The notes below the pieces were generated by a model. That model worked only from the letters and a program-made list of their open reading frames with translations, was not told the origin of the DNA and did no database searches. Positions 9,009 through 48,122 of a stretch of DNA of 64,000 nucleotides are shown in pieces (the first letter of the stretch is position 1; every line of letters starts with the position of its first letter). Source of the stretch: Candidatus Cloacimonadales bacterium (GTDB taxonomy: Bacteria; Cloacimonadota; Cloacimonadia; Cloacimonadales; JAFGVF01); NCBI GenBank assembly GCA_963663475.2, contig CAXXJV010000002.1, positions 128,001 to 192,000 on the forward strand. Reading direction: 5' to 3'. Made by a program: the position numbers and the translations under genes.

Positions 9009-9362
9009 TTATTTTAGTATTAATGTTTTTCTTTTGGTAACAAAACGTTTATTTTCTTTAACTTGTACAGTATAGTTACCGTTTGCTAAGAGGTTACCTG
9101 CGAAATCTGTACGATCCCATTCTAAAGTATAATCCCCTACATTAAAGAAAGTTGAAGCAATGGTAGTAACTACCTGCCCTTCCTGATTTAGTATTTCAAT
9201 AGTTAAGTGAACACCAGTGTTACAGTGAAAACTGATTATAGCAAGGTCACTTACAGCTTCAGGACTTACCTTGAAGTCACTAATATTATCAGAGCTCTTA
9301 TTACCAGCAAATAAAACAAAAGTAAATACTAATAAGCATAAAACAATTAATCTTTTTTTCAT
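9009..9362 (-). CDS. Small secreted protein made only of a FlgD-Ig/T9SS-like C-terminal domain
   Basis: Signal peptide; I.N..GQVV.TI...G.Y.LEWD..D..G..L.NG.Y; ends KRKTLILK. Confidence 0.7.
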   Translation of the reverse strand: MKKRLIVLCLLVFTFVLFAGNKSSDNISDFKVSPEAVSDLAIISFHCNTGVHLTIEILNQEGQVVTTIASTFFNVGDYTLEWDRTDFAGNLLANGNYTVQVKENKRFVTKRKTLILK

Positions 9363-24879: not shown

Positions 24880-26115
24880 ATGATAAATCAAATTGAGTTA
24901 ATTATTAATCAGATTGTTGGTTCAACTTGGATAACAAAAATATTGATGTCAATACTTGTAATTGCTACGGCGGTGGTGATTTATAAGTTATCAGTATTTG
25001 TCATCTTGAAGATAGTAAGAAAGCTAGTTGAGAGAAAAGACCCTGAAGTGAGGGGTAACTATCTAAAAACAGGGATTTTTAGAAGAGCTTCTTTACTTAT
25101 TCCCTTGTCTTTTTTAACTGTTTTGATGACTATCTGGGATGGTTATTCTCAAATAGTATATAACATCTTTTATATTGCTGCTCTCTTTATAGCTGTCTTG
25201 GTTATTGATGCTATCTTAAATGCTATCGAGTTAGTTAATAGATCTAAATTTCAAGGTCATCCTAATTTCTCATTCAGAATATTCTCGCAAATAGCTAAAA
25301 TATTCCTTTTTATAGTATTCGCAATCATTTCTCTATCTCTACTCTTTGGTATGTCTCCTTACAAATTTATTACAGGTTTTTCAGCAATGACAGCAGTTGT
25401 TCTCCTCATATTCCGTGACACAATCTTATCCATAGTCTCATCAATGGAGATATCATCCTATGATCTAGTTAGAATCGGAGATTGGATAGAAATGCCTAGT
25501 ATGGATACTAATGGTGAAATTATCGAAATTAACCTGCATCAGATAAAAGTGCAAAACTGGGATAAAACAGTAACAACTATACCTACTCTTAAGCTGACAG
25601 AGCATTCTTTTAAGAACTGGAGACACATGAAGGATTCTGGCTCAAGAAGAATTAAAAGATCTATAAATATTGATTTGAATACAATTAAAATCTGTAGTCC
25701 TGAAATGATAGAAAGTTTTAGAAATATAAATATTTTACGAGACTATATCACTAAAAAAGAAAATGAAATACTAGAATATAACCGACAACAAACAAACTCT
25801 AATTTAAAAAAAAGAACTAACTATAGGGGTTTAACTAACATTGGTGTTTTTAGAACATATATTGAACAATATTTAAAGAATCATAAGGATGTAAATCAAG
25901 ATATGACCTTCCTTGTAAGGCAATTACAACCTAATGATAAAGGCTTACCTCTAGAAATTTATGCCTTCATCAACGAAACTAATCTATCTGAATTTGAAAG
26001 AATCCAATCTGATATTTTTGATTTTCTGATAGCAATATTACCTGAGTTTGAATTGAAGTTATTCCAACTACCCTCAGGCAGAGATTTTAAGAGAAAATTT
26101 AGACCAGAATATTAA
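24880..26115 (+). CDS. Mechanosensitive channel, MscS family (YbdG-like)
   Basis: GDWIEMP, VQNWDKT, FKNWR, RRIKRSI, LVRQLQP, QSDIFD. Confidence 0.92.
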   Translation: MINQIELIINQIVGSTWITKILMSILVIATAVVIYKLSVFVILKIVRKLVERKDPEVRGNYLKTGIFRRASLLIPLSFLTVLMTIWDGYSQIVYNIFYIAALFIAVLVIDAILNAIELVNRSKFQGHPNFSFRIFSQIAKIFLFIVFAIISLSLLFGMSPYKFITGFSAMTAVVLLIFRDTILSIVSSMEISSYDLVRIGDWIEMPSMDTNGEIIEINLHQIKVQNWDKTVTTIPTLKLTEHSFKNWRHMKDSGSRRIKRSINIDLNTIKICSPEMIESFRNINILRDYITKKENEILEYNRQQTNSNLKKRTNYRGLTNIGVFRTYIEQYLKNHKDVNQDMTFLVRQLQPNDKGLPLEIYAFINETNLSEFERIQSDIFDFLIAILPEFELKLFQLPSGRDFKRKFRPEY

Positions 26116-26125
26116 TATAGCAAAA

Positions 26126-28891
26126 CTAAAATTTACTAAAAGGAATAAAGATATCAAACTGATGTTTAGCTGACCTGTTCACAGCATAAGAATATCTAAA
26201 ACCAAGCTTGAATTCTATACTATCAAGCAAGTTGTAATCAAATATCAGCTCATTTCCAAGTGTATTCTGTTCCTGATAAGATGTCTTATTATCAATTGTT
26301 ATAGCAGATTTGGCATAGGCAAGCAGGAAGGAGGTATAAATTCTTTTTAAAAAGATAACATTCTCTATTCCCCGCTCAGGATATAATAAAGGGAGATAAT
26401 ACTTCACTGATGTCTTATATATTCTGTCATGTTCAGGTAAATCGGTATATCCATACACATTGGAAAACATGTTACCAAACTGATATTCATTTGTGTTTTT
26501 CTCTGCTATGAAAGAGTTCTCTAAAAGAATAGAATCACTTTTTCTTAGTCCTTGGAAAGAGAAATCAGCCATTGCGTAAAATTGTTGAGCTTTGTTTTCT
26601 TTCAAAGATTTTTTATAACTAAGCAAATAGTTTTGTCCTAAGGGTGAATAGAAATGATTCTTAGCCCTAATCTTAGAGTAATTAAAGCTTAGGTCGCCTT
26701 TAAAATAGTTTAACTTAAAATCAGCATCATGTACAAAATTTAAAATATTCCTAGCCTTATAACGATCTAAGTGATACAATCCCAGATTTATGTTGAAATA
26801 GCCCTTATAAGAAGCAAATCCGAAATGATAAGGTAACTTTACAGACGAACCATAGGTAATTTCTTCAAATTTATCACTAGTAAAATTAGAGTTTGCATGT
26901 GATATCTCGGACAGAATATTAGGGTAGTGTTTGGACATAACATTGGAAATTGTAGTTTTTATACCCTTGTTAGAAAAGTTAAACTGGCTCTTAGCATGAA
27001 TAGTAAAAGTCCGCATAGGGTTTTGAGAAATAGTGTAAAGAAAAAGATCTTTTTGGTCATAACTAAGACGGACTCTTTTAAAATCAATCAGTTTATAAAA
27101 AGGATTAAGCTTCTTAGCTTTAAAAGTACGCCCATTATCTAGCTTTAAGATATGTGAGCACTCCTGAGTTAAATCTTGGTAGTCATTCCAAAGGATAGGA
27201 GTCCAAAACTCTTCATCTAAATCAACTTGCCTTAGCTGACTTCCCCAGTATCTATTAGACGTAAATACGAGAAGGCTATCTTTAATACTTGCTTGTCCTG
27301 CACTAACTTCAGGGTAAAAAGTCTGATATGCTAAACTATCTCCAAGTGATAAAGCACAGATATTATAGACATTATTTACTGGGTATGAGAAGAATATTTT
27401 ATTATTTGCCACTGTCAAATCTTTGATTGGATCAATAGAATAAGGAGTGATTTTTTCTTGTTTATTTAACTTTAAATCATAGCTATAGATAGCTGATTGG
27501 CCTAAGAAATTTTCTATCACATAGAGTAACTTGTTGTTATTTAACCAAACAAGATCATGAAAAGAATAACAATTAGGATTTGCTATTGCTTTAACAAGTG
27601 AACCATCATTAAAGTCTATTAGCTCAATTCTTTGATCGAAATCTTCATTGTAGGAAACAAGACTTACTAGCTTATGATTAGGCGAGAGCACAGGCTGTAA
27701 GTAGATGTTATTTTCTCCAAGATAACGTTTCTCATTAGTCTTATAATTTAAAATTGCTATCCTAGAGTAGTCTAAATTATCAAAGTTAGGATAGGCAAAA
27801 TTTTGACTCCATAAAATATAAGGCTCAGTAACACTTATCTTATCTGAGTTGCTATAACCTAGTTCAGCAAGATAATTTTTATTTCCCTGCTTATCAATTT
27901 TCACAATTTTAGGGCTTTCTTCAAAACTAGAGTAAAGAGCTATAAGCTCTTTGTTAGGTAATTGATGAGGATGGCTATAAGAAATATTTTTTAGATAATT
28001 TTCCTGGGATAAGAAAGGCTTACTAACATCAGGGGGAAGGGAGTTGATGTCAGATCTAAACTTAGTTTTATAGTAATCATGAGTCTTTTTATAAAACTGG
28101 GCTAAACTAAGACCTGTGTGCTTTTTAAAGGCTGATGAATAAGGAAAAAAGATGTTGTCAAAATACTCCACATCTTTAACAATTTTCTGCCATTTACTAA
28201 GGCCAAACTCAAACATGAAGTAGTCCTGAGCCAGGATACCTAAATAGAGTTGGGATGGTTGCTTTCTCAAATAAGAACTATTTAAAAGCTGATTAATGGT
28301 AAAATCTTGATTATTAAGAGCAAAATCTCTATAATTATCATAAGAATTTAACTCAATTTTCCTTTCAAAAGACTGCATGAGATCAAAGGTTTGGCTTTTC
28401 TCACTAGGATTTTCAAACCAATCTGGATAGAGAGCTTTCTTAGTACTCTGTAAAGATTTTCCTCTTGTGAGATTATAAGTATATTGAAGGAGGTCTTGTT
28501 TTAACTCTGTAAGATTAAGTGAAAGAGGTATATCAGTCAATTGTTGGAGATTATTTAGTGAAATGGGGTCATAATCTAACTTTGCTTGCTTATTTTTTTT
28601 AAAAGAATTCTCAACAAAATTATAGAAATCAAAATTTAGATTCTCCGACATAAATTTAGCATCAATAATAATCCTATCACTTTTAAGTAGAGGCTTCATT
28701 TCTGCTTGTTCGCTAATGATAAACTGTAAAAAAGAGGCTACAAGTTTAGCCCTTTCTTGGTAAGTTACGTCGTAGATTACTTGAGTACTATCAACCTGAA
28801 TATATTGCCATTTAGGTAAATAAAAGAAAGGAATAGCCTGTAAAATAGCTGAGAAAATTATTAAATATATAAGTAAGAATATTCTTCTCAT
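26126..28891 (-). CDS. Secreted/outer-membrane protein: degenerate peptidase-MA-like N-terminus, TolB-like beta-propeller, C-terminal beta-barrel-like region
   Basis: Signal peptide; PDWFE without HExxH; P..SP / W....L.Y propeller repeats; alternating aromatic strands; terminal Phe. Confidence 0.55.
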   Translation of the reverse strand: MRRIFLLIYLIIFSAILQAIPFFYLPKWQYIQVDSTQVIYDVTYQERAKLVASFLQFIISEQAEMKPLLKSDRIIIDAKFMSENLNFDFYNFVENSFKKNKQAKLDYDPISLNNLQQLTDIPLSLNLTELKQDLLQYTYNLTRGKSLQSTKKALYPDWFENPSEKSQTFDLMQSFERKIELNSYDNYRDFALNNQDFTINQLLNSSYLRKQPSQLYLGILAQDYFMFEFGLSKWQKIVKDVEYFDNIFFPYSSAFKKHTGLSLAQFYKKTHDYYKTKFRSDINSLPPDVSKPFLSQENYLKNISYSHPHQLPNKELIALYSSFEESPKIVKIDKQGNKNYLAELGYSNSDKISVTEPYILWSQNFAYPNFDNLDYSRIAILNYKTNEKRYLGENNIYLQPVLSPNHKLVSLVSYNEDFDQRIELIDFNDGSLVKAIANPNCYSFHDLVWLNNNKLLYVIENFLGQSAIYSYDLKLNKQEKITPYSIDPIKDLTVANNKIFFSYPVNNVYNICALSLGDSLAYQTFYPEVSAGQASIKDSLLVFTSNRYWGSQLRQVDLDEEFWTPILWNDYQDLTQECSHILKLDNGRTFKAKKLNPFYKLIDFKRVRLSYDQKDLFLYTISQNPMRTFTIHAKSQFNFSNKGIKTTISNVMSKHYPNILSEISHANSNFTSDKFEEITYGSSVKLPYHFGFASYKGYFNINLGLYHLDRYKARNILNFVHDADFKLNYFKGDLSFNYSKIRAKNHFYSPLGQNYLLSYKKSLKENKAQQFYAMADFSFQGLRKSDSILLENSFIAEKNTNEYQFGNMFSNVYGYTDLPEHDRIYKTSVKYYLPLLYPERGIENVIFLKRIYTSFLLAYAKSAITIDNKTSYQEQNTLGNELIFDYNLLDSIEFKLGFRYSYAVNRSAKHQFDIFIPFSKF

Positions 28892-28908
28892 AGAATAGGC
28901 TTATTAAA

Positions 28909-29649
28909 TTATTTAGTAACTGAGTAAATATTTAAAGCAAGAGAAATAGTTGCCAAAAGAGCAGTGTAGATATGCCATGGGAACTCTCGAGGTGGTGGAA
29001 CTACAATAGTATCACCTTCAAAGATAAGAAGTTGGTCTTCAGATGCTTCAACTGTATTAGAAAACCAAAGATCTCTAATTTCAACATCAAAAATCTCTCC
29101 ATTCTTCCTAATTAATCTTATCTCTTTCACATCACGAATATTTTTGATACCACGAGCTAAGGCTAGAGCATCTGTAAGTTTTAAGGGCTCATAAATTTGA
29201 TACTCACCAGGACTTGTCACATAACCAATGATATTAACCTTATGTCCATAAATTTTTTCTACATAGATAGTTACAACTGGAATAGTTACATAAGGGAGAA
29301 GTCGCTTTTCAATTAAGGCCCTTAAAGAAGAGATATTCATACCTTCAGCTCTTATATTTCCTAGTAAAGGATACTCAATACCTCCATCAGGTAAAACTCG
29401 GATAGATTGCTTTGTAAATTCAGCATGTCCCATAACTACTATAGAGATAATATCTCCCTTTTGTAGTATATATTTCTCAGTTTCAAGAACTGCTAAGGTA
29501 TCATTTGGTTCAAGGTCACTAGATATTAAGCCTCTAGCAATATCATCCTTAGTGATTACAGGAATACCTTCATTATCTTCAATCTGTGCAAAGATAGATA
29601 TCCAACTTATTACAAGCATGGCTAATATATATATTCTGAGATTCTTCAT
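28909..29649 (-). CDS. wza: Wza-like (OPX) polysaccharide export protein
   Basis: YILQKGDIISI, V.PDG.I.YPLLG.I.AEG, SLBB domain (G.V.SPG.Y, ALALA.G), C-terminal hydrophobic helix; no lipobox Cys. Confidence 0.85.
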   Translation of the reverse strand: MKNLRIYILAMLVISWISIFAQIEDNEGIPVITKDDIARGLISSDLEPNDTLAVLETEKYILQKGDIISIVVMGHAEFTKQSIRVLPDGGIEYPLLGNIRAEGMNISSLRALIEKRLLPYVTIPVVTIYVEKIYGHKVNIIGYVTSPGEYQIYEPLKLTDALALARGIKNIRDVKEIRLIRKNGEIFDVEIRDLWFSNTVEASEDQLLIFEGDTIVVPPPREFPWHIYTALLATISLALNIYSVTK

Positions 29650-29720
29650 AATTTTACCATTTATTCCTTAGATTTAACATTTAGTCAATATAGTTGATTC
29701 AGACAAATAGTCAATATTTA

Positions 29721-30827
29721 TTATTGAAGCTCAAGTTTAAGATCAAGAAGTTTCTGTTGATATTCTTGAAGTTTTGTTTCCCAGTAAACTTGGCCATTAA
29801 TAGTCTTATAGATACCAGGATAAGTGAAATACTCAATTTTTCTATTCTTCATCTTCTGCACTTGTCTAGCAAGGGGAATAGCTTTTTGAACAGTTAAGTT
29901 AGTTTCTGCTTCCTTTAAAATCTGTCTGCCAATATTACTTGAGGTAAAGAAGTCTTGCTGAGTGAATTTCTTATATAACTCTAACATAAAATCTTTTTGT
30001 CTTTTTATTCTGTTATGGGAACCAGTTTTAAAGTCTATCTTACGCATATCTTTTGATATAAAGGTAATATATAGCCAAGATGTATAACCATCTATAATAT
30101 GTAATCCAGAATTAACATAATACTCCTTAGCGAAACTTTCTGGGATATCAACTTTAATACCACCTAGAAGGTCAATAAAGTTTATCCAGGCAGGTCTATC
30201 TTGACAGAAGTAGTAATCTATCTTTTTATTGGTAATAGTTTGAATACCGCTGACAAGTCCACTAGTACCTTCATAAAGATAAGTTTCGTAAAGTGTTTTA
30301 GTGCCAGAAACAGGGTCAGGTATAGCAGTAAACCAAGGAAGATGACCAGCTAAGAGTAACTCTTGTTGGGGATATATAGTTATTAAGATATAAGTACGGG
30401 GTAGTCCTGCATAGATAATGTTAATCTGAGGAAAGTCTTCCAGCTTTGGCATTTCTGGGTGTTTGACTTGTATTTCAGGTTCTTGAGGTGGGAGACTTAT
30501 TTTTTCTGGAGCTTTACAGGGGATACAGTAAACTTCCCAAGGCCTTATCTCTTTATCTAGGTTTATCTTTGAAAGGTCTGCATTCTTTTTAGCTCCTTGA
30601 GCAGACATAATAAGTTCAAAGAGGGTAGTTTTAACCTGAACTGGGTAAACACCAGGGTCATTAACACAGCCACCTATACCAGCATAAATTATATCATTTT
30701 CTCTGCTACAAGCTCGAAGAGATAATAGAATCAAAATAATGATAATAATTATCATGATAAGTGAAATAATATAAGAAGCTATTTTCCCTCTTGAGACTTC
30801 TCTGGATTTTTTTCTAGATGTCATCAT
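29721..30827 (-). CDS. Membrane-anchored SLBB + LytR/CpsA/Psr (LCP)-like protein
   Basis: N-terminal TM; GCVNDPGVY...ADLSKINL (SLBB); IDYY, FIDLLGGIKVD, RIKRQ, ETNL (LCP). Start uncertain (30824-30848). Confidence 0.75.
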   Translation of the reverse strand: MMTSRKKSREVSRGKIASYIISLIMIIIIIILILLSLRACSRENDIIYAGIGGCVNDPGVYPVQVKTTLFELIMSAQGAKKNADLSKINLDKEIRPWEVYCIPCKAPEKISLPPQEPEIQVKHPEMPKLEDFPQINIIYAGLPRTYILITIYPQQELLLAGHLPWFTAIPDPVSGTKTLYETYLYEGTSGLVSGIQTITNKKIDYYFCQDRPAWINFIDLLGGIKVDIPESFAKEYYVNSGLHIIDGYTSWLYITFISKDMRKIDFKTGSHNRIKRQKDFMLELYKKFTQQDFFTSSNIGRQILKEAETNLTVQKAIPLARQVQKMKNRKIEYFTYPGIYKTINGQVYWETKLQEYQQKLLDLKLELQ

Positions 30828-33489
30828 AATCATCATCTTCAATGTCAATGTAGTCTGATAGACCTAAGAAGTCTTTAATAATATCTTTACTCCTAGTTAG
30901 AGCATTTTTCTTCTTAACATTCTTATATGATTTTTTGCTTGGAAAAGCATTTTTTAGGGAATTATCAATATTATTAGAGCTCTCATCATCGTATTCGTCA
31001 GGTTTTTGCTTGAACCTTTTTTTCTTTTTCTTAGAACCATCTTCCAGGGTATAGTAATAATATTCATAGCTATAGGAGTAATAATCATAGTAGGCTGTAT
31101 CAAAGATATCTTTCACTATTCCATTGGCAATGAAACCTGAGCAGACGGTATTAACCATGGCTAATTTTCTGATAATTCTATTAATACTTTTAAGGGTTGT
31201 AGTATTTATTTTAGCAGTAAGCAAGGTATAATCTAAATGACTAACAAGCACAGAGGTTTCTGGGAAGTACATATAAGCTGGAGTATCGATGATAACTATA
31301 TCTGCGAAGGATTTAATAGCTTTTATATAATCTCCAAATTTATCACTATGGTAGAGTTTATTGACACTTGGAGGCAGTTTACCTGATGGTAAGATAAAGA
31401 GGTTTTCGAAACGAGTTTCAATGATAGCGTCTTCTAGGTCTACTTGTTCTGTTACTACTTCTGAGAAACCAGGTAGATTTTTGAAATCATAATAACGAGA
31501 CACTCTTGGATTATAAAAATCAGCATCTACTAGCAGTACTTTTGTATTATTTCTAGCTAAAGCAACAGCTAGGTAATTTGAGATAGTAGATTTACCTTCA
31601 CCTTTAATGGAAGAGATAATTCCAACTAGGTTATTCTCTTTGTTCATGATCATATACTTAAAGTTGAGAGCAATCTCATTAAAGACAGATAATACTGAAT
31701 CCTTTAATTGATTGTTTTCCTTAGTGTCTTTCTGAGTAAGAATATCTAAATCCATAGGACTAAAGTCAAGTTTTGGTACAAGACCTACCATAGGTATTGC
31801 CGGAAATTCTTTTTCTAAGGTTTTAACTGTTCTAATTTTGTTATCAAACATATTAAGAAGCATAGCTAAACCAAAGCCAAGACCTAGGCCTAAAATAGTT
31901 CCAATTAATAAGTTTAATTTAAGCTTATTATTAGATGGTTTAGAAGGTACAGTAGCTTGTTCTAATTGAACTATTCTATAAGCATCTATGCTAGAACTTA
32001 ATCTCATCTCACTAAGTTGAGTTTGCAAATTTATTATGATAGCACTTAAAGCATCTTTCTGTCTGTGAAGATCATTTAACAGAGAAGAAACTTCAGGGTT
32101 TAACTCCATACTCTTAATAATTCGTGCTAAAGCAATTTTCCTTTGGGAAAGAGAGATAACTTTTGTTTCTGATTTGATCAAATCTGATAGAATTTGTTGC
32201 TTTAATGGATTATTACCAACACTTTTTAATTGAACATTCTGCTCAGCACCTTCTTCAATTAAAGTGGTTATATTTGCAATATTTCTTCTGATACCAATAA
32301 CTTTAGGATGGTTTTCTCCATAGGAAGTTAAAGCTCTAGCAAGATCAACTTCGAGATTGAGAAGTCTCATTTTAAGGGGTTCACTGTAGGTTGTTTCGGT
32401 AGTATATTCCGAATCTTCTTCTTTTAATCTTTGTTTTAATGCTCGAATATTGGCATTTTCTGATTCAAGTTCAACCTCTGTACTTGAGAGTATGTCTTTA
32501 AAACTAGATAAACGCTTAAAATTATCTTCAATATCACCAGAAAAATTTTTAAAATTATGTTTTCTATAGAGATTTTCAATAGCTACATTTAGAGAATCTA
32601 ATTCCCTATTATTCCTGTCTAATTGCTCTTCTAAATAGCGGATAGTCTGAGCATAGTTATCATTTCTGATAGACATATCATAGTCATTGACTGCGTAATA
32701 GTAGTAATTAGCAATCTGGGCTGCGATATTAGGGTTTGTGTGGGTAGAAGTGAGGTTAATGACTCTTTCTTCATCTCTTAAGGTAGAGGTCTCTAGAGAA
32801 GCTTTAATAGCTCCTGGAGAAACAATTCCTTCCATATAACGAGATACTCTAGTAGCTACATCAGATGATTCGATAATCTGTATCCAAGTAGAAAGTTTCA
32901 TTTGTTCTTTAAGAACAGGTTTCTGATTAATAACTTTAAGTTCCATAATGTCATTATTAATCAAGAGTTTAGTAGTTGCCTTGTAGATAGGAGTCTGGTT
33001 TATTGAGTAAATATAGGCTGCTAAAATTAAAGCAATTGTTACTAAAATTATCATAAACTTATAACGATAAGCAATCTCTAAATAATCCATGATATTTATT
33101 TCATCTTCAAATATGTTCTTCTTAGGTGGAGCAGGGGGATAATTTGTATAGCGATTTACTTGGTCATTGTTTAGAGAAGAAGTCTGTTGATTTGAACCTG
33201 TATCTGGATTATTCACAAAATCAGTTCCATAAGAACCAATATTGGCTGGCTGATTAATTTCTAAATTAGTCTGATTAGTTACTTGCTGATTAGTTTGGTC
33301 AATATTATTGCTCTTAAGATTAGACTGTAGATCAGGAGAACCATCCTTTTTTTCACTTCTATTAACGAAAACAGATTTTTTCCCATCTTCATTTTTCTCA
33401 GAAGTAAAAGCATTTTTATCAATCTCGCTAGCTTTAGCAGCTGCTCTCATTGATCTTAATTCTGCAATAGATATTTTTTTATCTGCCAT
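30814..33489 (-). CDS. wzc: Wzc-type polysaccharide co-polymerase / BY-kinase
   Basis: Wzz-like TM-periplasmic-TM region (YGENHPKV); Walker A KGEGKST, A' LLVDAD, B IIDTP; Tyr cluster. Confidence 0.92.
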   Translation of the reverse strand: MADKKISIAELRSMRAAAKASEIDKNAFTSEKNEDGKKSVFVNRSEKKDGSPDLQSNLKSNNIDQTNQQVTNQTNLEINQPANIGSYGTDFVNNPDTGSNQQTSSLNNDQVNRYTNYPPAPPKKNIFEDEINIMDYLEIAYRYKFMIILVTIALILAAYIYSINQTPIYKATTKLLINNDIMELKVINQKPVLKEQMKLSTWIQIIESSDVATRVSRYMEGIVSPGAIKASLETSTLRDEERVINLTSTHTNPNIAAQIANYYYYAVNDYDMSIRNDNYAQTIRYLEEQLDRNNRELDSLNVAIENLYRKHNFKNFSGDIEDNFKRLSSFKDILSSTEVELESENANIRALKQRLKEEDSEYTTETTYSEPLKMRLLNLEVDLARALTSYGENHPKVIGIRRNIANITTLIEEGAEQNVQLKSVGNNPLKQQILSDLIKSETKVISLSQRKIALARIIKSMELNPEVSSLLNDLHRQKDALSAIIINLQTQLSEMRLSSSIDAYRIVQLEQATVPSKPSNNKLKLNLLIGTILGLGLGFGLAMLLNMFDNKIRTVKTLEKEFPAIPMVGLVPKLDFSPMDLDILTQKDTKENNQLKDSVLSVFNEIALNFKYMIMNKENNLVGIISSIKGEGKSTISNYLAVALARNNTKVLLVDADFYNPRVSRYYDFKNLPGFSEVVTEQVDLEDAIIETRFENLFILPSGKLPPSVNKLYHSDKFGDYIKAIKSFADIVIIDTPAYMYFPETSVLVSHLDYTLLTAKINTTTLKSINRIIRKLAMVNTVCSGFIANGIVKDIFDTAYYDYYSYSYEYYYYTLEDGSKKKKKRFKQKPDEYDDESSNNIDNSLKNAFPSKKSYKNVKKKNALTRSKDIIKDFLGLSDYIDIEDDDYDDI

Positions 33490-33492
33490 TAG

Positions 33493-34326
33493 TTACTGCC
33501 CATTGTTTTCTAAATCTTGAAAGACAATTTCTACTAAGTCTTTATCGATAAGTTTGATAGATTCCATAGAGGCTATATCCATGGATATTTTGCAAACTCG
33601 GTTAATTTCTCTTGGAATTCCGTTAGTTTTAGCATGGATTAAGTTTCTTGCTTCAGGAGAAAAAACATGGCTTTCTGCACCTGCTATCTTTAATCTATGC
33701 TGAATATATTTACTAGTCTCATTTGCTGAAAGATGGGAAAGATGGTAACGCATACCTATTCTTTGGTTGACTTGAGGTAACTTTTCAACATTTTTAATTA
33801 AAGATGGTTGACCTATCAAGATGATAATAATTGGACTATCAAAACCAAAGGTTATATTGGTTAAATCTTTTAAATAATCAAGGTCTCGAGAGGCAATTTT
33901 CTGAGCTTCATCAAATAAAAGAAAGAGTCTATTATTTGAGCTATTGAGTTTTTTTTCTAGAAGTTTTCTTAATTTAATTTCTAAAGAATATCTACGGGAA
34001 GGTAGGTTATCAGGGTCTTCTTTAGTTAGCTGATAGAGGGTTTCTTTCATTATCTCAGCAAAACTGTAGGAAGTAGAATTGATATTAACAAGCATGTTGT
34101 CAGGATTTTCTGTTTTTAAAGATTCAATAAGAACTAGTTTTGTAATAGTTTTTCCTGTGCCTACATCACCACTCAGCATTCCCATATTCATAGAACCTGA
34201 TTCTGTAACGTAATGCAGACGTTCTAGTGCTTCTAAATGGTCAGAACTTTTATAGTAAAATCTTGGGTCGTTGTTATCCTGAAAAGGAGGGATTTTTAAG
34301 TTCCAAAAGGAATAATAATCTATCAT
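33493..34326 (-). CDS. ExeA/GspA-type AAA+ ATPase
   Basis: YYSFWNL..PPF...DPRFYY.S..H.EAL, GDVGTGKT, LFDEAQ, LIGQP, QRI, GIPREIN. Confidence 0.9.
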   Translation of the reverse strand: MIDYYSFWNLKIPPFQDNNDPRFYYKSSDHLEALERLHYVTESGSMNMGMLSGDVGTGKTITKLVLIESLKTENPDNMLVNINSTSYSFAEIMKETLYQLTKEDPDNLPSRRYSLEIKLRKLLEKKLNSSNNRLFLLFDEAQKIASRDLDYLKDLTNITFGFDSPIIIILIGQPSLIKNVEKLPQVNQRIGMRYHLSHLSANETSKYIQHRLKIAGAESHVFSPEARNLIHAKTNGIPREINRVCKISMDIASMESIKLIDKDLVEIVFQDLENNGQ

Positions 34327-35015
34327 TAGCTTTCCTCTTTTCTCTGTTTGCTAAGTTTAATCTCAACTCTTCTATTCTTTTCTCTATTTATTTCAGTATC
34401 ATTTGGGGCAATAGGTTTAAATTCTCCATAGCCCATAATCTGCAATTGATCAGCAGAAAAATAATTATTTCTTAAGAAAAATTTAACTATACTAAGAGCT
34501 CTTGCTGTTGATAGCTCCCAGTTAGAAGCATACTTAGTAGTTGATATGGGAATATTATCAGTATGACCTTCTATTCTAATACTCCAACTGTCGCCGTCAT
34601 CAATTATGCTTTGTATTTCTTTAGCAATATCTAAAAGAGTGGACTGTGAGTTCCATTTTAAATCTGCCTTACCACTTTCAAACAAAATTTCTCCTGGAAT
34701 GGAAATAACTTTTTCATTGAGGTCAGAAACTTCTTCATAGAGAGTTGAATCAACTGCTACTTCATTTTCTGATAGTATCTTCTGGGCTTGCTGATCAGCA
34801 ACATTTTGCCAGCCTATTTCAGTGTCTTTTATTAAATAGAAAAAAACAAAGAATATTAAGAGAAGGGTCATCATATCAGAGTAGGGAACTAAGCTCACAT
34901 AAAAACCTGAAAAATCACTCTCAGGGCTGTCAAAATCTTGCCCTTTATGCTGATCTTCTGCAATATCATATTTGTTAGTCTTGATTTTATCCCTATCCTT
35001 TAAAGAATTAAACAT
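34326..35015 (-). CDS. motB: MotB/PomB stator subunit
   Basis: TM PYSDMMTLLLIFFV with the conserved Asp; OmpA-like domain EGHTDN, NWELSTARA, GYGEFKP, NRRVEI. Confidence 0.92.
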   Translation of the reverse strand: MFNSLKDRDKIKTNKYDIAEDQHKGQDFDSPESDFSGFYVSLVPYSDMMTLLLIFFVFFYLIKDTEIGWQNVADQQAQKILSENEVAVDSTLYEEVSDLNEKVISIPGEILFESGKADLKWNSQSTLLDIAKEIQSIIDDGDSWSIRIEGHTDNIPISTTKYASNWELSTARALSIVKFFLRNNYFSADQLQIMGYGEFKPIAPNDTEINREKNRRVEIKLSKQRKEES

Positions 35016-35745
35016 AAATCTTTTCTAGACCTGCTTTAATCAATTCTGAGTTCTTTTTGTTCATAATTCCGATTACACCTTCAATGATAATTTTCCTACT
35101 CATAAAGGAATATTCAGCCTTGCTGGCTAGTTTACCTGACATAGGTCTGAAGATAACAACAGATATAATTAGTCCATAAAGGGTAGTAACTAAGGCCAAA
35201 CTCATGGCTTTAGGAATGACTGTTGGGTTGGTAATATTTCCTAACATAGCAATCAAACCAATAACTGTTCCTATCATTCCAAAGAGAGGGGCAATATTAC
35301 TGGCAACTGAAAATATTTTAGCTGAATTCTTATGCTTATTCAAAATAGAATAAGATTCTTTTTCTAATAATCTGGGTATTTCTTCGGCAGGAAGATTATC
35401 AGTAATTAACTTTAAAGCATTTCTAAAAAATGGTAACTTCTGAACTTCATCGTAGTCCATGATTTCCTTGATAGTAACAGAACGAGAATCTTTACTAATG
35501 GAAACTATAGTATCTACTAGGTCATCATGACTATATTGATCTTGTGGGTTACTATGAAAGAAGTCCTTTAGAGCTCTCATAAGAGAAGTAGCTGAATAAG
35601 TGCTTATTAAAGATGTAATGGTTCCACCAAAAGTTACCAAAAGAGCTATGGGATCCAAATAAGAACTAAGGTCTCCTTTATTATTAATAGCAATAAAGAG
35701 TATTAAAACACAGAGAAACCCACCAATAAAAGTAGAAATTTTCAT
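35008..35745 (-). CDS. motA: MotA/PomA stator subunit
   Basis: 4-TM MotA layout: LLVTFGGT, APLFGMIGTVIGLIAML, ALVTTLYG, IIIEGV. Confidence 0.92.
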   Translation of the reverse strand: MKISTFIGGFLCVLILFIAINNKGDLSSYLDPIALLVTFGGTITSLISTYSATSLMRALKDFFHSNPQDQYSHDDLVDTIVSISKDSRSVTIKEIMDYDEVQKLPFFRNALKLITDNLPAEEIPRLLEKESYSILNKHKNSAKIFSVASNIAPLFGMIGTVIGLIAMLGNITNPTVIPKAMSLALVTTLYGLIISVVIFRPMSGKLASKAEYSFMSRKIIIEGVIGIMNKKNSELIKAGLEKIYV

Positions 35746-35757
35746 AAATTAAAATCC

Positions 35758-37140
35758 TTAATAGTTTAGTATATAACGTATTTTTTGAAGTGAATGATTT
35801 ATAATTTTTTCAGCTTCATCTTCTTGAATTTTACCGATTACTTCCATATCTTCTTTAAGAATAATAACAGCTCTTTCTGATAATTGAGAGAAAAACTTCT
35901 GCCTAATATTATCTGGCAAGCATTTAAGGAACTGTACCATTTCTAAATGACTAAACTCACTGTTAATCTGCTCAATTTGGACATTCTTGAGATTTAAAAT
36001 ATCATCCATTAGGAATATTTTCTGTTTAACTTGCTCAGCAATTTCTGGTTTTAACTCTTTTAACTTGTTGAAAAGAGTTTGGGCTACACTCAATGAAGAA
36101 GAATTGATAAAGTTTATCATTGTCTTCACATTGTTAATTTTAACAGGATTTTTATCAAGGGCTTCCAGATACTTCTGATACATTCCAACAACCATAATTT
36201 TCATGTCTAATTGCAGAATATTTTCCATCTCTATTATATGTTTCAAGACTTCATCAATAGATCCATCATAAAATTTGAAAAAGTAATCGACCTTACTAGC
36301 TTCAACCTGTGTCAAGATTAAAGCGATTTCACGAGGATTCTCGTTTTTCACAATAGAGAGAAAATTACTGTTAGATAATTCATTAAGGAAATCAAGATTG
36401 GTATTCTCAGCCTCATCATCATCCTTGAGTAATTTTACCTGTAGAGGTTTATTTGAACCTCCTGAAAGCTGATTATTTGCAGCTGATTCTGCACTTTTGA
36501 ACATTTGAAAATCTCTAGTTTCCCCTAACTTTAGCTGGTCAAGGTTAGATATCTTTATTCTTCTTAGGGACTTAGCAATGATTCTTGTTGAATTTCTAAT
36601 ATTATTAATTATCAACATAGCTAAAAGAAAAGCTATGAGTAATAATACGTTTCTAAAATTAAAGAGGGAAGAACTAGCACTAGTAACCAGGGGTAGGTCT
36701 GCTCTAATAGATACTTGGTCCTGAGTTACTAATTCTTGGGAAGAAGTGTTTATGACGATTTCTTCAATCTCTTTAAGTAGCTCTTCTTTAGTGTCTTCTG
36801 GAACCCGCACCATAATCGATAATTTTGTTATTTCAGTAGGTGCATAGTCGCTTAGATCTATGTTAGGCATTGAAGAATCACTCTTACCAACTGGTAATCC
36901 TGGTAGACTTAATTTCTCATCAAGTCTTAAATTACCTTGGTTTGACTCAAATAGATTATACTTTAAATCTAAATCTACAAAGACAATCGCTCTATCAACA
37001 AAAATACTTAAATTTTTCTCTATTCTCTCAGCTAACTCATTTTCTGCCTTTATTTCTCCTAGCGAGTTTTTAGGAGTTGCTGTCAGTAGTGTGTTAGTGC
37101 AAAAGAATAGTGCTAAGATTAATCCAATATATGATTTCAT
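35758..37140 (-). CDS. FliF-RBM-like / TM / FliG middle+C-terminal fusion protein
   Basis: Signal peptide from ATG 37140 (AGGGG RBS); TM NVLLLIAFLLAMLII; FliG motifs ENPREIALIL, PEIAEQVKQKIFLMDDI, SQLSERAVIILKEDME. Confidence 0.8.
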   Translation of the reverse strand: MKSYIGLILALFFCTNTLLTATPKNSLGEIKAENELAERIEKNLSIFVDRAIVFVDLDLKYNLFESNQGNLRLDEKLSLPGLPVGKSDSSMPNIDLSDYAPTEITKLSIMVRVPEDTKEELLKEIEEIVINTSSQELVTQDQVSIRADLPLVTSASSSLFNFRNVLLLIAFLLAMLIINNIRNSTRIIAKSLRRIKISNLDQLKLGETRDFQMFKSAESAANNQLSGGSNKPLQVKLLKDDDEAENTNLDFLNELSNSNFLSIVKNENPREIALILTQVEASKVDYFFKFYDGSIDEVLKHIIEMENILQLDMKIMVVGMYQKYLEALDKNPVKINNVKTMINFINSSSLSVAQTLFNKLKELKPEIAEQVKQKIFLMDDILNLKNVQIEQINSEFSHLEMVQFLKCLPDNIRQKFFSQLSERAVIILKEDMEVIGKIQEDEAEKIINHSLQKIRYILNY

Positions 37141-37751
37141 TAAACTTACCCCTATTGTGGCAAGAATGAGAAATAAGCTAATTTTGGCAAGCACTTTTTT
37201 TTATAATCTTTATAATTCTGCAAAATTTGCATGTTTATGGTTATTATAAACTCAAAATGTCTCCCAAAAATAATGTTAAAATAATATAGTAAAATGTAGA
37301 TTATATCTATGTTAAACAGAAAGATAAGCTGAATATATAGAAATGAAATACTTATCTAAATTAGCAAAATGTCTTCTAAAAGTATCCATTTAGAAGGGAG
37401 ATTAATATTTTCTATACAATCTGCAAATTTAAGAGTCTATTTCCTAATAAACCCTAATATTGCTAGAGAATTTAGCCAATGTACTTATTTCTAATATTCT
37501 ACTATTTTCCCCGAGCTTACAGTCTGAATTTTTCTTTTAAGGAGTCTATCCTAACCAGCGAGTATTCAATGAATAATACATAAATTAATGCAAATAATTA
37601 AGTCTTAATTTTCATTATCCAACAAAGATACTACCAGTAAAAATATAGTGACAATACAAAGATAAATTCATTGATAAAAAAAACTGTTAATTCTTTCTTC
37701 TAGTAATGTGCCTATGGCTCACCTGTGTTTTGTTTCCCTTAGCCATGACTA

Positions 37752-37814
37752 ATCCTTCCTTTACAGTCTTTCGATGAAAGTCCAGGTTTCATCGAAAGAC
37801 TGTAAAGGAAGGAT
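37752..37814. repeat. Perfect 28 bp inverted repeat with 7 nt loop, repeat B copy 2
   Basis: Arms identical to 1172-1232; loop gtccagg. Confidence 0.95.
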
Positions 37815-38058
37815 CAAGGATGAACCAAGGGTAAAAAACATAATTTCGGAAGGTGAAAATCATTTTAAAGCAATATAAAAACATGTTTATAATTTGCTAG
37901 TTAAAAAATATTTAATATAACTACTATAAATCTACAAAAATAAAATAAATTAAAAATAATCAAGAAATGCAAGCAGAATATTCTCTTGAATCCTATTTTT
38001 TTATTGACTATGATGCTTGTCTAAATATTATCAGCCCATAAATCATAGGAGCACTTTA

Positions 38059-41000
38059 ATGAAGTTATTTATAGCTAAAAATAAGACTATTCTTGTACTT
38101 GCTTATCTCTTAATGTTTGCTACTTTTCTCGCTGGAAACAAGCAGTTTGATCTAAACAGTTGGCAAGGAAACTATAATGTTAAAGGGAAAAATGCTTTTG
38201 ATCAATTTGGTTATCAAATTATGTCTGGTGACTTTAATGGCGATGGAATTGATGATATTATTGCCTCAAGTCCTTCAGCTGATCCATTAGGTAGAAACTC
38301 TGCAGGAGAAGTCTATATTTTTTGGGGTAATGAACAGAGTGAACAGTCTGTCAACATAGATTTAAGTTCTGCTACTGCAGATGTAACCATTATAGGGGCA
38401 GCAAGTGGAGACAAACTAGGCTACTCAATAGCTACCGGATCCTTTAATGGTGATAGCTATAGAGATTTTGCTATATCAGCTCCTTATAGCAATAATGGGC
38501 AGACTCTCCAAACTGGTTCTGTTTACTTATTTTATGGAGGCACAAATCTAGCAGGGACTATTGATTTAAGTATCGATACAGCCCAACACCACTTTCTGGG
38601 ACAAACAACAAATGATTATCTCGGGCAAGAATTAATCTTTACAGACCTTAATAATGACAATAAGGATGAATTAGTAATTTCTGCTCCTGAAGGAGATAAA
38701 GCAGAACTTAATAATTGTGGTTTGGTTTATCTTATATGGTCTCATGAAAGTTATGGACAAACAGTTAATTTATCACAAGCTAGTAATATTTCATTTTTGG
38801 CTGGTTTGTCTATTAATGATAATTTAGGACGATCCCTAGCAAGTGCCAATATTAATAATGATCTTTTTCAAGACTTACTTTTAGGAGCTCCTGGAGTTGA
38901 TGAGGAGAGTCTGATAAATAACGGGAGTGTATATCTTCTTAAAGGGCGGACTTTCTTTCCTTATGGGGAAATATCCCTAGTTAATGATAATTTTATTGAA
39001 ACTGAAATTAAGGGAGGCTTTCATTCCTCAAATTTAGGAAGGACTATGGCTGCTGGTGATATTAATGGAGATGGATTTGGAGATATTAGTCTAAGTGATT
39101 TTTCTCAAAATAGCGCTTCTAATCTGGTTTATATCGTCTATGGAAGCAATTCTCTAGCTAGCTCAATGAGCCTTAACGATGAATCAGCTAATATAAAGAT
39201 ATCTCATCAAGGAATCTCAGATAATTTATTTGCAACAAATCTCTTTATTGGTAATGTAAATCAAACCAGTCCCGAAGATTTAATAATTTCTTCTCCTCAG
39301 GCTTTTTCCAATAATGGTAATGAAAGTGGCTTAGTACATGTTCTTTATGGAAGAAATCAGTTTGAAACAAGCTATGATTTAGCACTAGATTCTTACGATG
39401 AGATATATCATGGACAGGTAGCTAATGCAAATTTGGGTTCTGCTCTAGCTTTAGCTGATTTTAACAATGACCTTAAAACAGATATATTCCTAGGTTCAAT
39501 CAATGCAGGTAATACTAAAGGTTCTCTTTATGGAGTCTATGGAGGAATACCATGGGCCTGGAACCTACTGCCAACTGACGGAGCAAGCAATGTTGATATT
39601 GATCAAGCAATAGCTTTTTCCTTGTCTGATGACCAGCAAATAGACTTAAACTCTCTTAATGTTAATATTGCTGGAACAGCTTATGATATCAATTCTAATA
39701 ATCTCTCCTATAGTGGTTCTGGAAACTTTTATAGGATAACAATTGTACCAGAAGCCTATTTTGGTTATAATCAGATAATCAATGTAAGTATTCAAGCAAG
39801 TGATAATGAAGGTTGGCAGATACCAACAAGCAATTATAGATTTTTTACTAGAGAAGATACTGATCCACCCTTTACTAACCAATGGTTACCAGCTCCTGAC
39901 CAACAAGGAGTTCCAATTGATACTAATATTGAATTTAATGTCTATGATTTAGGAGAAGGGGTTAATCTATCCTCAATTATCGTTAATATTGATGGAACAA
40001 ACTACTATTCTGGTTCTCCTTACTTCTCTCACTTAGGGCAAGTTAATAATTTTAGAATTATAGTTAATCCACCAGACAACTTTTCTTTTGGACAAGAAGT
40101 TTTTGTTACAATTGATTGCCAAGATTTAGCTCCCCTCCCTAATTCTATGTCCACCTTTAGTTATTCATTTATATGTGGACAGGATAACTCAGCTCCATCA
40201 ATTATTGTGATTGAGCCTAGTTATGGGGAAGAGGTGGCCAGAACTAATATCTTATCTGTTGAGGTAGCTGATAGTGAATCAAATCTTAACCAGAACTCCT
40301 TAATCTTTAGACTAGATAATGAAAATATCTTACCATTCTCAGATATTCAAACTCTTAGTAATGGCAATCTAAAAGTTACTTATAATCCTTTAGAAAATCA
40401 GTTATTAACTTATGGACAAAGAGAGATTTATTTTTATGTGGAAGATGCTTCAACTAATGCTAATAGTATTGATACAACTTCTGTTTTTACTGTGATAGCA
40501 GATAATCAAGCCCCCTATACAGCTAATCATTTCCCAGAAAAGTTCTCTGTAGATAATCCAACTAATAGCCAATTTAAGATTGATGTTTTTGATTTGCTCA
40601 GTGGTATCGATCTTACAACTTTATCAATAAAAATTAATGATGTAGAAATTAGTCTCAGTGAAACTACTTCAATATCTGCCCTCAATAATGGATATAGGGT
40701 CATTTATAACCCACCTGAAAGACTTGTGGGGGAGGTATCGGTAGAAGTTCAAGTAAGCGACTTAGAAAATCCAGCTAATACCATGCCTTTAGAAAGCTAT
40801 ACATTTACAACTTCTTTAGATGAAGATGCTCCTTATATTAGTGATTTGTATCCTGAGGAAGGGGCGGTTAATATACCCATAGATGCTAATCTTTCCTTTA
40901 AACTTTATGATGATAAAACAGGGGTAGATAGGTCGTCTATCCAAGTTTTAATAAATGATAATGATGTTAGCCAAGATTTGAATATTGCTACTATTTCAGG

Positions 41001-47300: not shown

Positions 47301-48122
47301 GATGATAACGACCATAATCGCCAGATTATTGAAAAGAATCTTAATCATTGGGGAATTAATTATCTTAGTGCTAACTCAGGCCAAGAAGCCTTGGATATTC
47401 TTGCTAAGGATAATGAGATAGATTTAGCTATTTTTGATTTAATTATGCCAGGAAAGGATGGAATAGAAAGTATTAGGGAGCTAAGACAAAGATTTGATAA
47501 CTATAAAAATCTACCAATAATCCTCCTTCATAGCTCTGTAGAGGATAAAAAAATCAATCAAGAAGCACAAAACTTGAATATTGCTCACAAAATGGTAAAA
47601 CCACTTAAAGCAAAAGAGTTGAAAGAACTTATCTTCTCAATATTTGAAGATAATTCTCGTAACATAATTAAGCTCTCTGCTAAATCTTATGAACCAACCA
47701 CTTATACTCTTGATAAGGGTAAACAGAAGGTCCTTATAGCTGAAGATGTGGAGTTAAATTTAGTCTTAATTAAAACTATCATTAAAAAGGCTATTCCACT
47801 GGTAGAGACAGTTACTGTAGTCAATGGTCAGGAAGCAGTAGATGTCTTTAAAAAGAACAAGTTTGATTTAGTTTTAATGGATGTTCAAATGCCTGTTATG
47901 GATGGACTACAAGCTACTAAAATTATCAGAACTTTAGAAAAAACAAGAGATCATAAAACACCTATATTAGCTTTAACAGCTGGGGCAACTAAAGAAGAAA
48001 CTAGAAAATGCCTTGAAGCTGGTATGGATGAAATAGTTACAAAACCTATTGACCAAGAAAAACTAAGATCTATTTTAGATAAACTACTTAAACCCAATAA
48101 TGCAGTAGATCTTTGTGAATAG
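44307..48122 (+). CDS. Hybrid sensor histidine kinase (periplasmic SBP, 2 PAS, GAF, HisKA/HATPase, 2 receivers)
   Basis: [28 protein letters not shown], two receiver domains (DLIMP, DVQMP). Confidence 0.95.

Follow-up and report, generated by a model that had tools for sequence, protein, structure and literature searches.

Here, we describe an operon of eight co-directional minus-strand genes at 26126-37140 in a Candidatus Cloacimonadales genome, analysed within a window of 64,000 nt (assembly GCA_963663475.2, contig CAXXJV010000002.1); coordinates are positions within this window unless another locus is named. Genes 1 to 3 encode a fused rotor protein and the stator subunits MotA and MotB, genes 4 to 7 encode a polysaccharide-export set comprising an ExeA-like ATPase, Wzc, a LytR-CpsA-Psr (LCP) protein, and Wza, and gene 8 encodes an exported protein. 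Beyond gene 1, on the other strand, lie genes for a giant FG-GAP surface protein, a PorV-like barrel with a tetratricopeptide repeat (TPR) tail, and a hybrid histidine kinase (Table 1). The open reading frame (ORF) listing bears out the eight co-directional genes with the overlaps and gaps reported in an initial annotation of this DNA, and each of the product labels given there is confirmed by Pfam and NCBIfam, gene 8 having no family match. Genes 1 and 2 lie 12 nt apart, genes 2 and 3 overlap by 8 nt, genes 3 and 4 share one base, 3 nt separate genes 4 and 5, genes 5 and 6 overlap by 35 nt (with a TTG start), and gaps of 71 and 17 nt follow up to genes 7 and 8. All eight related Cloacimonadales loci preserve the order of genes 1 to 7, with gene-1 identity falling from 78% to 40%; this conservation puts the arrangement beyond chance. 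On balance, we favour a reading in which these genes specify a cell-envelope rotor-stator machine that is independent of the flagellum.

The product of gene 1 is a naturally occurring miniature fusion of FliF and FliG, consisting of a domain resembling the third ring-building motif (RBM3) of FliF, one membrane helix, and the FliG middle and torque domains. The FliF/FliG fusion label of the initial annotation is borne out by the FliG profile matches together with the RBM3-like predicted fold. As read from the translation, the 460-aa product starts with a signal peptide or first transmembrane (TM) helix, followed by a periplasmic domain at ~24-165 with a 40-residue insertion carrying a conserved SLPGLPVGK motif, a TM helix at ~176-198, a juxtamembrane IIAKSLRRIK motif that is conserved, a linker of low complexity, and a C-terminal half that is helical.

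Several lines of evidence support this assignment. First, residues ~250-460 correspond to the FliG middle and C-terminal domains. The Pfam family FliG_C matches with 57.6 bits against a cut-off of 23.3 (E 1.8e-15); the NCBIfam model TIGR00207 reaches 76 bits against a cut-off of 226.7, its profile positions 109-308 alone matching; and in a search of the PDB with a 12-sequence gene-1 profile, residues 113-320 of Aquifex FliG (3hjl) align to profile positions 251-457 with E 6.8e-21. The N-terminal, FliF-binding domain of FliG is missing, and the periplasmic domain and TM helix stand in its place. Second, the periplasmic part resembles FliF in fold, as judged from a predicted model of residues 24-165. 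Folded alone, this part adopts an alpha-beta-beta-alpha-beta arrangement with a core pLDDT of 75-87. Compared with representative structures by VIA-align, it places the RBM3/collar of the FliF MS-ring on top (Z 13.0, 12.3, and 10.7; ~100 aligned residues, root-mean-square deviation ~4 Å, 16-19% identity), followed by the ring-building proteins PrgK (Z 8.9) and SpoIIIAG (Z 8.7); in Foldseek, 17 of the first 19 rows listed are FliF, the best with E 1.8e-3. For the full-length model, the top structural match is FliG, and FliF RBM3 comes next. Gene 1 thus carries a single RBM, which is nearest to RBM3 by fold only: a profile of the periplasmic domain found no FliF in the PDB (best E 0.12, to an unrelated salivary protein), and a profile of the N-terminal 180 residues found 46 representatives only among 1.84 billion proteins, nearly all of them 440-540 aa long. 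Third, the charged residues of the torque helix are retained. Among 23 Cloacimonadota gene-1 sequences with identity down to 21%, R423 never varies and the conservation of E430 is at least 90%; within the close gene-1 family, E430 and D431 are both invariant. We take R423 and E430/D431 to be the counterparts of R281 and D288/D289 of E. coli FliG. The accessible part of PMC12505986 names FliG residues R281 and D288/D289.

As judged by their sequences, genes 2 and 3 encode a PomAB-like MotA/MotB stator that is intact, retaining the channel Asp, the plug, and the peptidoglycan anchor, and that looks functional. Gene 2 matches MotA_ExbB in Pfam (88.1 bits, 5.1e-25), and its nearest NCBIfam models are MotP and PomA, at 149.3 and 134 bits and far under the equivalog cut-offs (394 for the best model); it aligns end to end with the solved MotA chains 8ucs/6ysf and with PomA chains (E 2e-30 to 6e-28 in a PDB sequence search). 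In nine orthologues, the SKDSR motif with R88, E94, and both prolines near TM3/TM4 are invariant. Gene 3 matches OmpA (5.4e-19) and MotB_plug (4.8e-7) in Pfam, and in nine orthologues the TM Asp in PY(S/A)DMMTLLL is invariant and the OmpA-like domain is also kept. For gene 1, motA, motB, and exeA, dN against the closest locus (L006) is 0.05-0.15, far under dS, which points to purifying selection on all four genes; dS is saturated and, therefore, no dN/dS ratio is given for gene 1.

The initial annotation had proposed that MotA be placed in a tree with its flagellar and ExbB/Tol relatives. Four proteins of the genome match MotA_ExbB. One is the product of gene 2, and the remaining three supplied the ExbB/TolQ outgroup for a quick maximum-likelihood tree of 84 rows. 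This tree further contained 23 MotAs of the system described here, five other Cloacimonadota MotAs, and 53 database relatives (the first eight plus 45 chosen at random from 104 full-length sequences, 51 being left out). The system MotAs fall together on one side of a branch (SH-aLRT 77) and outside a group of 52 other MotA/PomA/MotP rows, five from Cloacimonadota and 47 from the database (SH-aLRT 89). The root of the tree, which lies on three long ExbB/TolQ branches, is unsure.

The genome that contains the window (3.30 Mb, two contigs, 99.24% complete) has no flagellum. Profiles for FlhA (FHIPEP), FliP, Flg_bb_rod, Flagellin_N, YscJ_FliF, and, at E<=0.01, FliMN_C all returned zero matches in the genome, and each of these searches gave matches in 4 of 14 control genomes. 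FliG_C has a single match in the genome, which is gene 1 itself. The lack of export, rod, hook, filament, and FliM/N genes, noted initially for the window, thus extends to the whole genome, and the proposal that a stator and a minimal rotor occur outside a flagellum holds up in view of the architecture of gene 1, the MotAB pair, and the missing flagellar set.

The gene 1-MotA-MotB triad is a conserved unit in about one fifth of Cloacimonadota genomes. Searched against 232 genomes of this phylum, the gene-1 profile matched in 71, of which about 49 have the fused-type rotor: 38 with one match covering at least profile positions 47-457, and 11 further genomes with split or contig-cut partial matches of the fused type. 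Another 19 genomes match positions ~236-456 alone, in ORFs of 277-396 aa that represent the canonical FliG of flagellated lineages, and three have a weak match only. By family, the fused rotor occurs in f1 (our own genome plus 8 of 11), f6 (three genomes), f12 (34 of 62), f15 (one), and f17 (two); none of the 98 genomes of the largest family, f3, has it. Two genomes, G118 and G119, encode the fused protein together with canonical FliG and FlhA, and this coexistence marks the system as a paralogue of the flagellar motor rather than its remnant. A motA gene is found downstream of gene 1 in each of the eight close loci, for all 14 gene-1 copies in 13 distant loci, and in L045, L046, and L049, and MotB lies 3' of 13 of the 14 distant copies. 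The exception is L016 (genome G223), in which a MotB-like frame of 140 aa at 8080-8502 keeps the TM Asp motif and is missing the OmpA-like part; this short MotB could be a variant without an anchor or result from a frameshift or an error in assembly. Locus L024 (G144:C42, 6086-13415) has two tandem copies of a set in which MotA, MotB, and a TPR/YfiO-like protein of 371-379 aa accompany the fused rotor, and more than one rotor match is also found in G152, G156, G157, and G188. In the part of PMC13277936 accessible to us, Cloacimonadota are mentioned only for a high loss of flagellar genes.

Across the phylum, the partners of the motor are the PorV-like/TPR barrel and the FG-GAP protein, both encoded outside the eight-gene operon on which the initial annotation centred. 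FG-GAP homologues lie beside the motor in all eight close loci, in 10 of the 13 distant ones, and also in G191, G140, and G209. In all eight close loci, the FG-GAP gene and the gene for the 492-aa barrel protein are kept as a divergent pair upstream; in 9 of the 13 distant loci, a PorV-like/TPR gene is directly upstream of and co-directional with gene 1 and is itself preceded by an FG-GAP homologue. In L028, an FG-GAP homologue is found 3' of motB. Where the barrel-TPR gene is missing, a TPR/YfiO-like gene follows motB and genes for other proteins with type IX secretion system (T9SS) tags lie nearby. In our genome, the barrel protein comprises a barrel at ~32-300, a conserved linker, and a C-terminal TPR part (Pfam TPR matches), and it matches the PorV family model NF033709 over positions 14-326 of 326 (E 1.1e-9, 38.4 bits against a cut-off of 90). 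Its look-alikes in Atlas, which we treat as a lead only, are PorP/SprF+TPR and PorV/PorQ+TPR clusters, mostly from Elusimicrobiota. A complex prediction for the TPR tail (327-492) with the periplasmic domain of gene 1 (24-165) was uninformative either way (score 0.07, mark 0.32). The giant protein matches FG-GAP (5.8e-38) and Big_5 in Pfam, with CHU_C at the C-terminus.

Regulatory genes were observed at several of these loci. In our window, a hybrid kinase gene (44307-48122) directly follows the PorV-like gene, and its product is a possible regulator. In G191 (L045, 9815-12543), the genes directly upstream of gene 1 encode a hybrid histidine kinase and a CheY-like protein with a single receiver (REC) domain, and the motor genes of L027 and L028 have TPR-kinases and sigma-54 response regulators as neighbours.

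The genome encodes a SprA translocon (TIGR04189, 204.7 bits, rising to 487 when neighbouring pieces are counted; the frame, of 2,133 aa, lies elsewhere in the genome) as well as PorV-like proteins that score under the cut-off. GldL and GldM gave no match in this genome, and GldL gave none over the cut-off in the 232 Cloacimonadota genomes, in searches for which no control genome scored over the cut-off. Either the T9SS motor of Cloacimonadota is too diverged for the GldL and GldM models, or the T9SS is powered differently. In one alternative to our reading, the motor would be a dedicated energizer of secretion or anchoring for the giant T9SS-tagged protein, replacing GldLM/PorLM at one PorV-like barrel and having no role in movement. 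The conservation of the FG-GAP protein, the PorV-like/TPR barrel, and the motor as a trio fits this alternative, as do the presence of SprA, the undetected GldL and GldM, and the pairing of proteins whose C-terminal domain (CTD) is of type B with cognate PorP-like barrels described in the accessible text of PMC9143113. However, SprA is present in 212 of the 232 genomes, including 93 of the 98 genomes of f3, the family without the fused rotor, and the T9SS of the phylum is thus generally independent of the motor. Moreover, the GldL and GldM searches had no positive control, which leaves the absence of these proteins unproven, and the T9SS-type CTD match of the giant protein is marginal (CHU_C, 28.1 bits against a cut-off of 27; TIGR04183, E 0.38). 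We regard this alternative as conceivable and rather improbable. On the same SprA counts, we rejected the motor as a general replacement of GldLM for the T9SS of the phylum.

The link between the motor and polysaccharide export is real but secondary. Gene 4 matches AAA_22 (1.2e-15, Pfam) and TIGR03015 (1.2e-41, 143 bits against a cut-off of 324.5). Gene 5 matches Wzz (6e-11), GNVR, and AAA_31 (1.2e-11), exceeds the cut-off of TIGR01007 (114.1 bits over 108.05), and reaches 104.8 bits against a cut-off of 278.85 for TIGR03007; it has a 128-residue N-terminal extension, and direct reading gives a Tyr-rich C-terminal tail, YYDYYSYSYEYYYY. With a Wzz domain, a P-loop kinase domain, and this Tyr cluster, gene 5 conforms to the PCP-2a tyrosine autokinases (Wzc). 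Gene 6 combines LytR_cpsA_psr (2.9e-10) and SLBB (6.3e-8) matches with a TM segment read directly. Gene 7 matches Poly_export (2.2e-18, 66.7 bits, cut-off 28), SLBB_2 (1.5e-7, 31.8 bits, cut-off 27), and TIGR03027 (2.8e-22, 79.2 bits against a cut-off of 180), and has one SLBB domain and a hydrophobic C-terminal helix, the helix being read directly. TIGR03015, TIGR03007, and TIGR03027 are the best or near-best NCBIfam matches, all under the cut-off. No glycosyltransferase or flippase gene adjoins the operon, and the nearest Wzx-like gene is at 53646-55055.

ExeA orthologues at E<=1e-37 (39-100% identity) occur in 13 of the 232 genomes, namely our own, eight of f1, G139, G140, G191, and G209, and all 13 have the fused rotor. 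In these genomes, the export set is linked to the motor in at least three gene orders. In our own family, the order is gene 1-motA-motB-exeA-wzc-LCP-wza; in G139, it is gene 1-motA-motB-exeA, at which point the contig ends; in G191, it is exeA-wzc-LCP-wza-hybrid histidine kinase-REC-gene 1-motA-motB-FG-GAP; and in G209, one contig has FG-GAP-PorV/TPR-exeA-wzc up to its end and a second has LCP-wza-gene 1-motA-motB. In G140, the export set and the motor set lie at the ends of two short contigs. That the export set stays with the motor through rearrangement argues for a working relation. The linkage of exeA, wzc, LCP, and wza to the motor, pointed out in the initial annotation, is not chance, as it is found in 8 of 8 family-level relatives and in other orders in G139, G191, and G209. 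It does not, however, belong to the core of the system: ExeA and Wzc homologues are absent from the fetched flanks of the 13 distant loci, LCP and Wza homologues are found there in L020 only, and strong ExeA orthologues are confined to 13 of 232 genomes. The absence of the export set at most motor loci indicates that the motor has no need of it.

These data also bear on the idea that the motor chiefly energizes polysaccharide export, in which rotation of the gene-1 ring would be coupled to the Wzc octamer and Wza and would push or spool the polymer. The translational packing of genes 1 to 7, the order of which is kept in 8 of 8 relatives, the presence of gene 1 in all 13 genomes with a strong ExeA match, and the persistence of the set beside the motor through at least three rearrangements are in keeping with this idea. 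By contrast, 12 of 13 distant fused-rotor loci have no export genes nearby, and known Wzc/Wza systems, such as those for group 1 capsule export, are generally understood to need no such motor. We therefore consider a motor dedicated chiefly to export doubtful.

Gene 8 is probably outer-membrane associated. Pfam, NCBIfam, and PDB searches gave no sequence match, and for Pfam and the PDB neither a 7-sequence profile nor relaxing E to 10 changed this. Direct reading gives a signal peptide and an invariant C-terminal Phe, which suggests that part of the protein may be an outer-membrane barrel. Six of the eight related loci contain gene 8, and the operon lacks it in the two most distant family members, L012 and L013; on this point, the eight-gene set is not supported in the form given by the initial annotation. 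Language-model (Atlas) look-alikes of gene 8, again a lead only, are TolB family/WD40 proteins of 940-960 aa from Bacteroidota.

The locations of the genes discussed here are compiled in Table 1.

Table 1. Genes of the operon and of its divergent neighbourhood, with positions in the 64,000-nt window
Feature	Position	Strand	Description
gene 1	35758-37140	-	ATG start; end 37194 with upstream GTG start instead
gene 2	35008-35745	-	MotA/PomA-type stator A subunit, 245 aa
gene 3	34326-35015	-	MotB-type stator B subunit, 229 aa
gene 4	33493-34326	-	ExeA-like AAA ATPase, PEP-CTERM-locus type, 277 aa
gene 5	30814-33489	-	Wzc-type polysaccharide co-polymerase/tyrosine autokinase, 891 aa
gene 6	29721-30848	-	membrane-anchored SLBB + LCP (LytR-CpsA-Psr) glycopolymer transferase-like protein, 375 aa
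gene 7	28909-29649	-	small Wza-type outer-membrane polysaccharide export protein, 246 aa
gene 8	26126-28891	-	exported protein of unknown family, 921 aa
FG-GAP giant surface protein	38059-42723	+	divergent from operon; 1,554 aa counted from first ATG
PorV/PorQ-like barrel + TPR	42732-44210	+	492 aa
hybrid sensor histidine kinase	44307-48122	+	1,271 aa; SBP-PAS-HisKA-HATPase-2xREC (Pfam)

Several further features of the window were noted. A scan of 25900-38100 gave 56 promoter-like sequences (53.9 expected) and five terminator-like sequences (4.8 expected). An Rfam scan of the window found no family at the gathering score and, therefore, no riboswitch leader; in 37100-38100, it gave only sub-threshold matches of miRNA precursors to a long hairpin. 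This hairpin, which has a perfect stem, lies at 37743-37836 between gene 1 and the FG-GAP gene. A BLASTN search of 37700-37880 against the genome returned 190 matching pieces, of which the first 25 listed are all on contig C2. With this number of matches, the hairpin is a dispersed palindromic repeat, similar to repetitive extragenic palindromic (REP) sequences or miniature inverted-repeat transposable elements (MITEs), and it helps to explain why the spacer is 820 nt here as opposed to 20-130 nt in several of the related loci. An MscS-like mechanosensitive-channel gene at 24880-26115 (plus strand) converges on the operon's end, and in 4 of the 13 distant loci a 300-aa MscS-like gene lies directly 3' of motB (L018:8974-9879, with homologues in L022, L025, and L026); this proximity may be a coincidence or reflect a link to membrane tension. 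Farther away, a 117-aa frame at 9009-9362 (minus strand) matches FlgD_ig, which in Cloacimonadota marks T9SS-type C-terminal domains and not flagellar FlgD, and a TMEM260-like protein O-mannosyltransferase with TPR is encoded at 9428-11836 (minus strand), as it is next to the G191 cluster (L045:1192-3777). Sequence of the window is contained in DNA runs labelled wastewater, microbial mat, and bioreactor; no RNA run that contains it was listed.

Two other alternatives concern the nature of the module itself. It could be a sensor or brake, in which the stator would act on a static FliG-like scaffold and report membrane potential, load, or surface contact to kinases and Wzc, thereby tuning adhesion and slime. 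The hybrid histidine kinases, single-domain REC protein, and sigma-54 regulators beside the motor in several loci, as well as the MscS-like genes that follow motB in four loci and adjoin the operon in our window, are compatible with sensing, and flagellar stators take part in surface sensing in other bacteria according to excerpts of the literature. However, a ring-building domain and conserved torque-helix charges suit a turning rotor and exceed what a sensor needs, and the signalling genes are not conserved partners across loci; we therefore find a sensor or brake unlikely. The least probable reading is that of a functionless module, either a decaying flagellar remnant or a chance juxtaposition, which is strongly disfavoured: although some Cloacimonadota lineages are flagellated and filament-less rotor proteins, maybe remnants, occur in 11% of non-motile species (bioRxiv 10.1101/2024.12.05.626484, in its accessible part), the frames are intact, functional residues are conserved at 21-40% identity, dN is far under dS, the domain fusion is specific and without FliF sequence relatives, the system coexists with flagellar FliG and FlhA in G118 and G119, the MotAs form a separate group, and the non-flagellar neighbours are conserved.

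For the rotor-stator machine that we favour, we suggest the following scenario. Gene-1 subunits would assemble as a ring in the inner membrane via the RBM3-like domain. MotA5B2 units anchored to peptidoglycan would use an ion gradient to turn or push this ring, with a MotA loop (R88/E94) making contact with the FliG torque helix (R423, E430/D431). The periplasmic part of the ring would then hand the work on to the outer membrane, where it would be received by the PorV-like barrel with its periplasmic TPR tail and by the giant FG-GAP/Ig adhesin with its T9SS-type tag. In our genome's own family and a few other lineages, Wzc/LCP/Wza, together with the ExeA-like ATPase, would add exopolysaccharide export, acting in concert with the motor. 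Our best guess at the job of such a machine is motor-driven handling of a surface adhesin combined with slime secretion, resulting in gliding-like surface movement or in controlled attachment and aggregation in wastewater and mat communities. The initial annotation had offered ion-driven export of a polysaccharide or adhesin, or gliding-like motility; of these, the conserved partners speak for the export of an adhesin or for gliding-like motility no less than for polysaccharide export. Within the general reading, we make no choice between surface movement and active secretion or anchoring.

A number of observations weigh against this reading. The putative ring, its rotation, and its presumed contacts with MotA, the PorV-like protein, Wzc, and Wza are all deduced from homology and gene order. 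The full-length model of gene 1 is poor (pLDDT 56.5) and the periplasmic model moderate (mean pLDDT 67.1, from nine sequences), with the 40-residue insertion between the first two strands unmodelled; Foldseek E values for FliF are never below 0.001, and YscJ_FliF, PDB profile, and N-terminal profile searches give the periplasmic domain no sequence-level match to FliF. The FliG middle domain has no FliM/FliN partner in the genome, and the MotB-like ORF of L016 has no OmpA part. The neighbours of the motor vary: 4 of 13 distant loci have no PorV-like gene, and the export set is absent from most motor loci, with ExeA, Wzc, LCP, and Wza all missing from 12 of the 13 distant loci. T9SS-tagged proteins are common in Cloacimonadota and, therefore, some of the adjacency could be coincidence. 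Finally, all compared genomes are related, so the locus counts overstate their independence. The more specific proposition that Cloacimonadota hold an undescribed rotary envelope machine, in which a one-protein FliF/FliG ring turned by MotAB would deliver torque via a PorV-like barrel to a giant adhesin, along with co-secreted polysaccharide, and provide a new type of surface motility or active adhesion, is one that we put forward only tentatively. In a literature search that had supplements and subscription journals outside its reach, no natural FliF-FliG fusion with MotAB was found described in non-flagellated bacteria.

FliG-type rotors and MotAB stators are regarded as parts of the flagellum only. 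The recent survey in PMC12505986, in its accessible part, treats flagellar stators as one clade defined by their flagellar role. If our reading is correct, the torque-generating core is a portable module, and a naturally minimal system of three proteins becomes available for studies of torque generation and ring assembly. The machine may offer a present-day model of a rotor-stator that is minimal or predates the flagellum, and questions about the origin of the flagellar motor would become testable. It would also represent a new means of powering events at the outer membrane, by way of the PorV-like barrel, the giant adhesin, and the Wzc/Wza exporter, in bacteria that are abundant in wastewater and digester communities.

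The proposed machine shares features with several known systems and differs from each of them. [quoted passage not shown] In contrast to the flagellar motor, the rotor is a single 460-aa polypeptide lacking the FliG N-terminal domain and FliF RBM1/RBM2, the genome is devoid of FliM/N and of an export gate, rod, hook, and filament, the neighbouring genes are outer-membrane and polysaccharide-export genes, and the MotAs fall outside the sampled flagellar group. Engineered FliF-FliG fusions of Salmonella and Vibrio assemble into rings, as described in the accessible parts of PMC10941966 and PMC11481574, and have the same order of parts as gene 1. As far as these texts go, they were made in the laboratory from FliF and FliG at full length and sit within a complete flagellum, whereas gene 1 is a natural and far shorter fusion in a genome without a flagellum.

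The gliding and T9SS machinery of Bacteroidota comprises the GldLM motor, the GldKN ring, SprA, PorV, and the SprB adhesin with its SprF/PorP-like barrel. With this machinery, the system shares the genetic tie that joins a predicted ion-driven motor of the inner membrane to a putative barrel of PorV/PorP type and to a giant adhesin bearing a T9SS-type CTD, as well as SprA and PorV-like genes in the genome. It differs in having MotAB and a FliG-type rotor instead of GldLM, GldL and GldM being undetected in searches without a positive control, and in the TPR tail of its barrel. Finally, genes 4, 5, and 7 match families of Wzx/Wzy-type export by a polysaccharide co-polymerase and an outer-membrane polysaccharide export protein (PCP-OPX) of PEP-CTERM/XrtA-locus flavour, and the Tyr-rich tail of the kinase is likewise in keeping with them. 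Unlike in PCP-OPX/XrtA systems, no glycosyltransferase, flippase, or exosortase gene is adjacent (no search was aimed at exosortase), the scores are under the PEP-CTERM equivalog cut-offs, and the export genes share a predicted operon with a rotor-stator and an SLBB-LCP gene.

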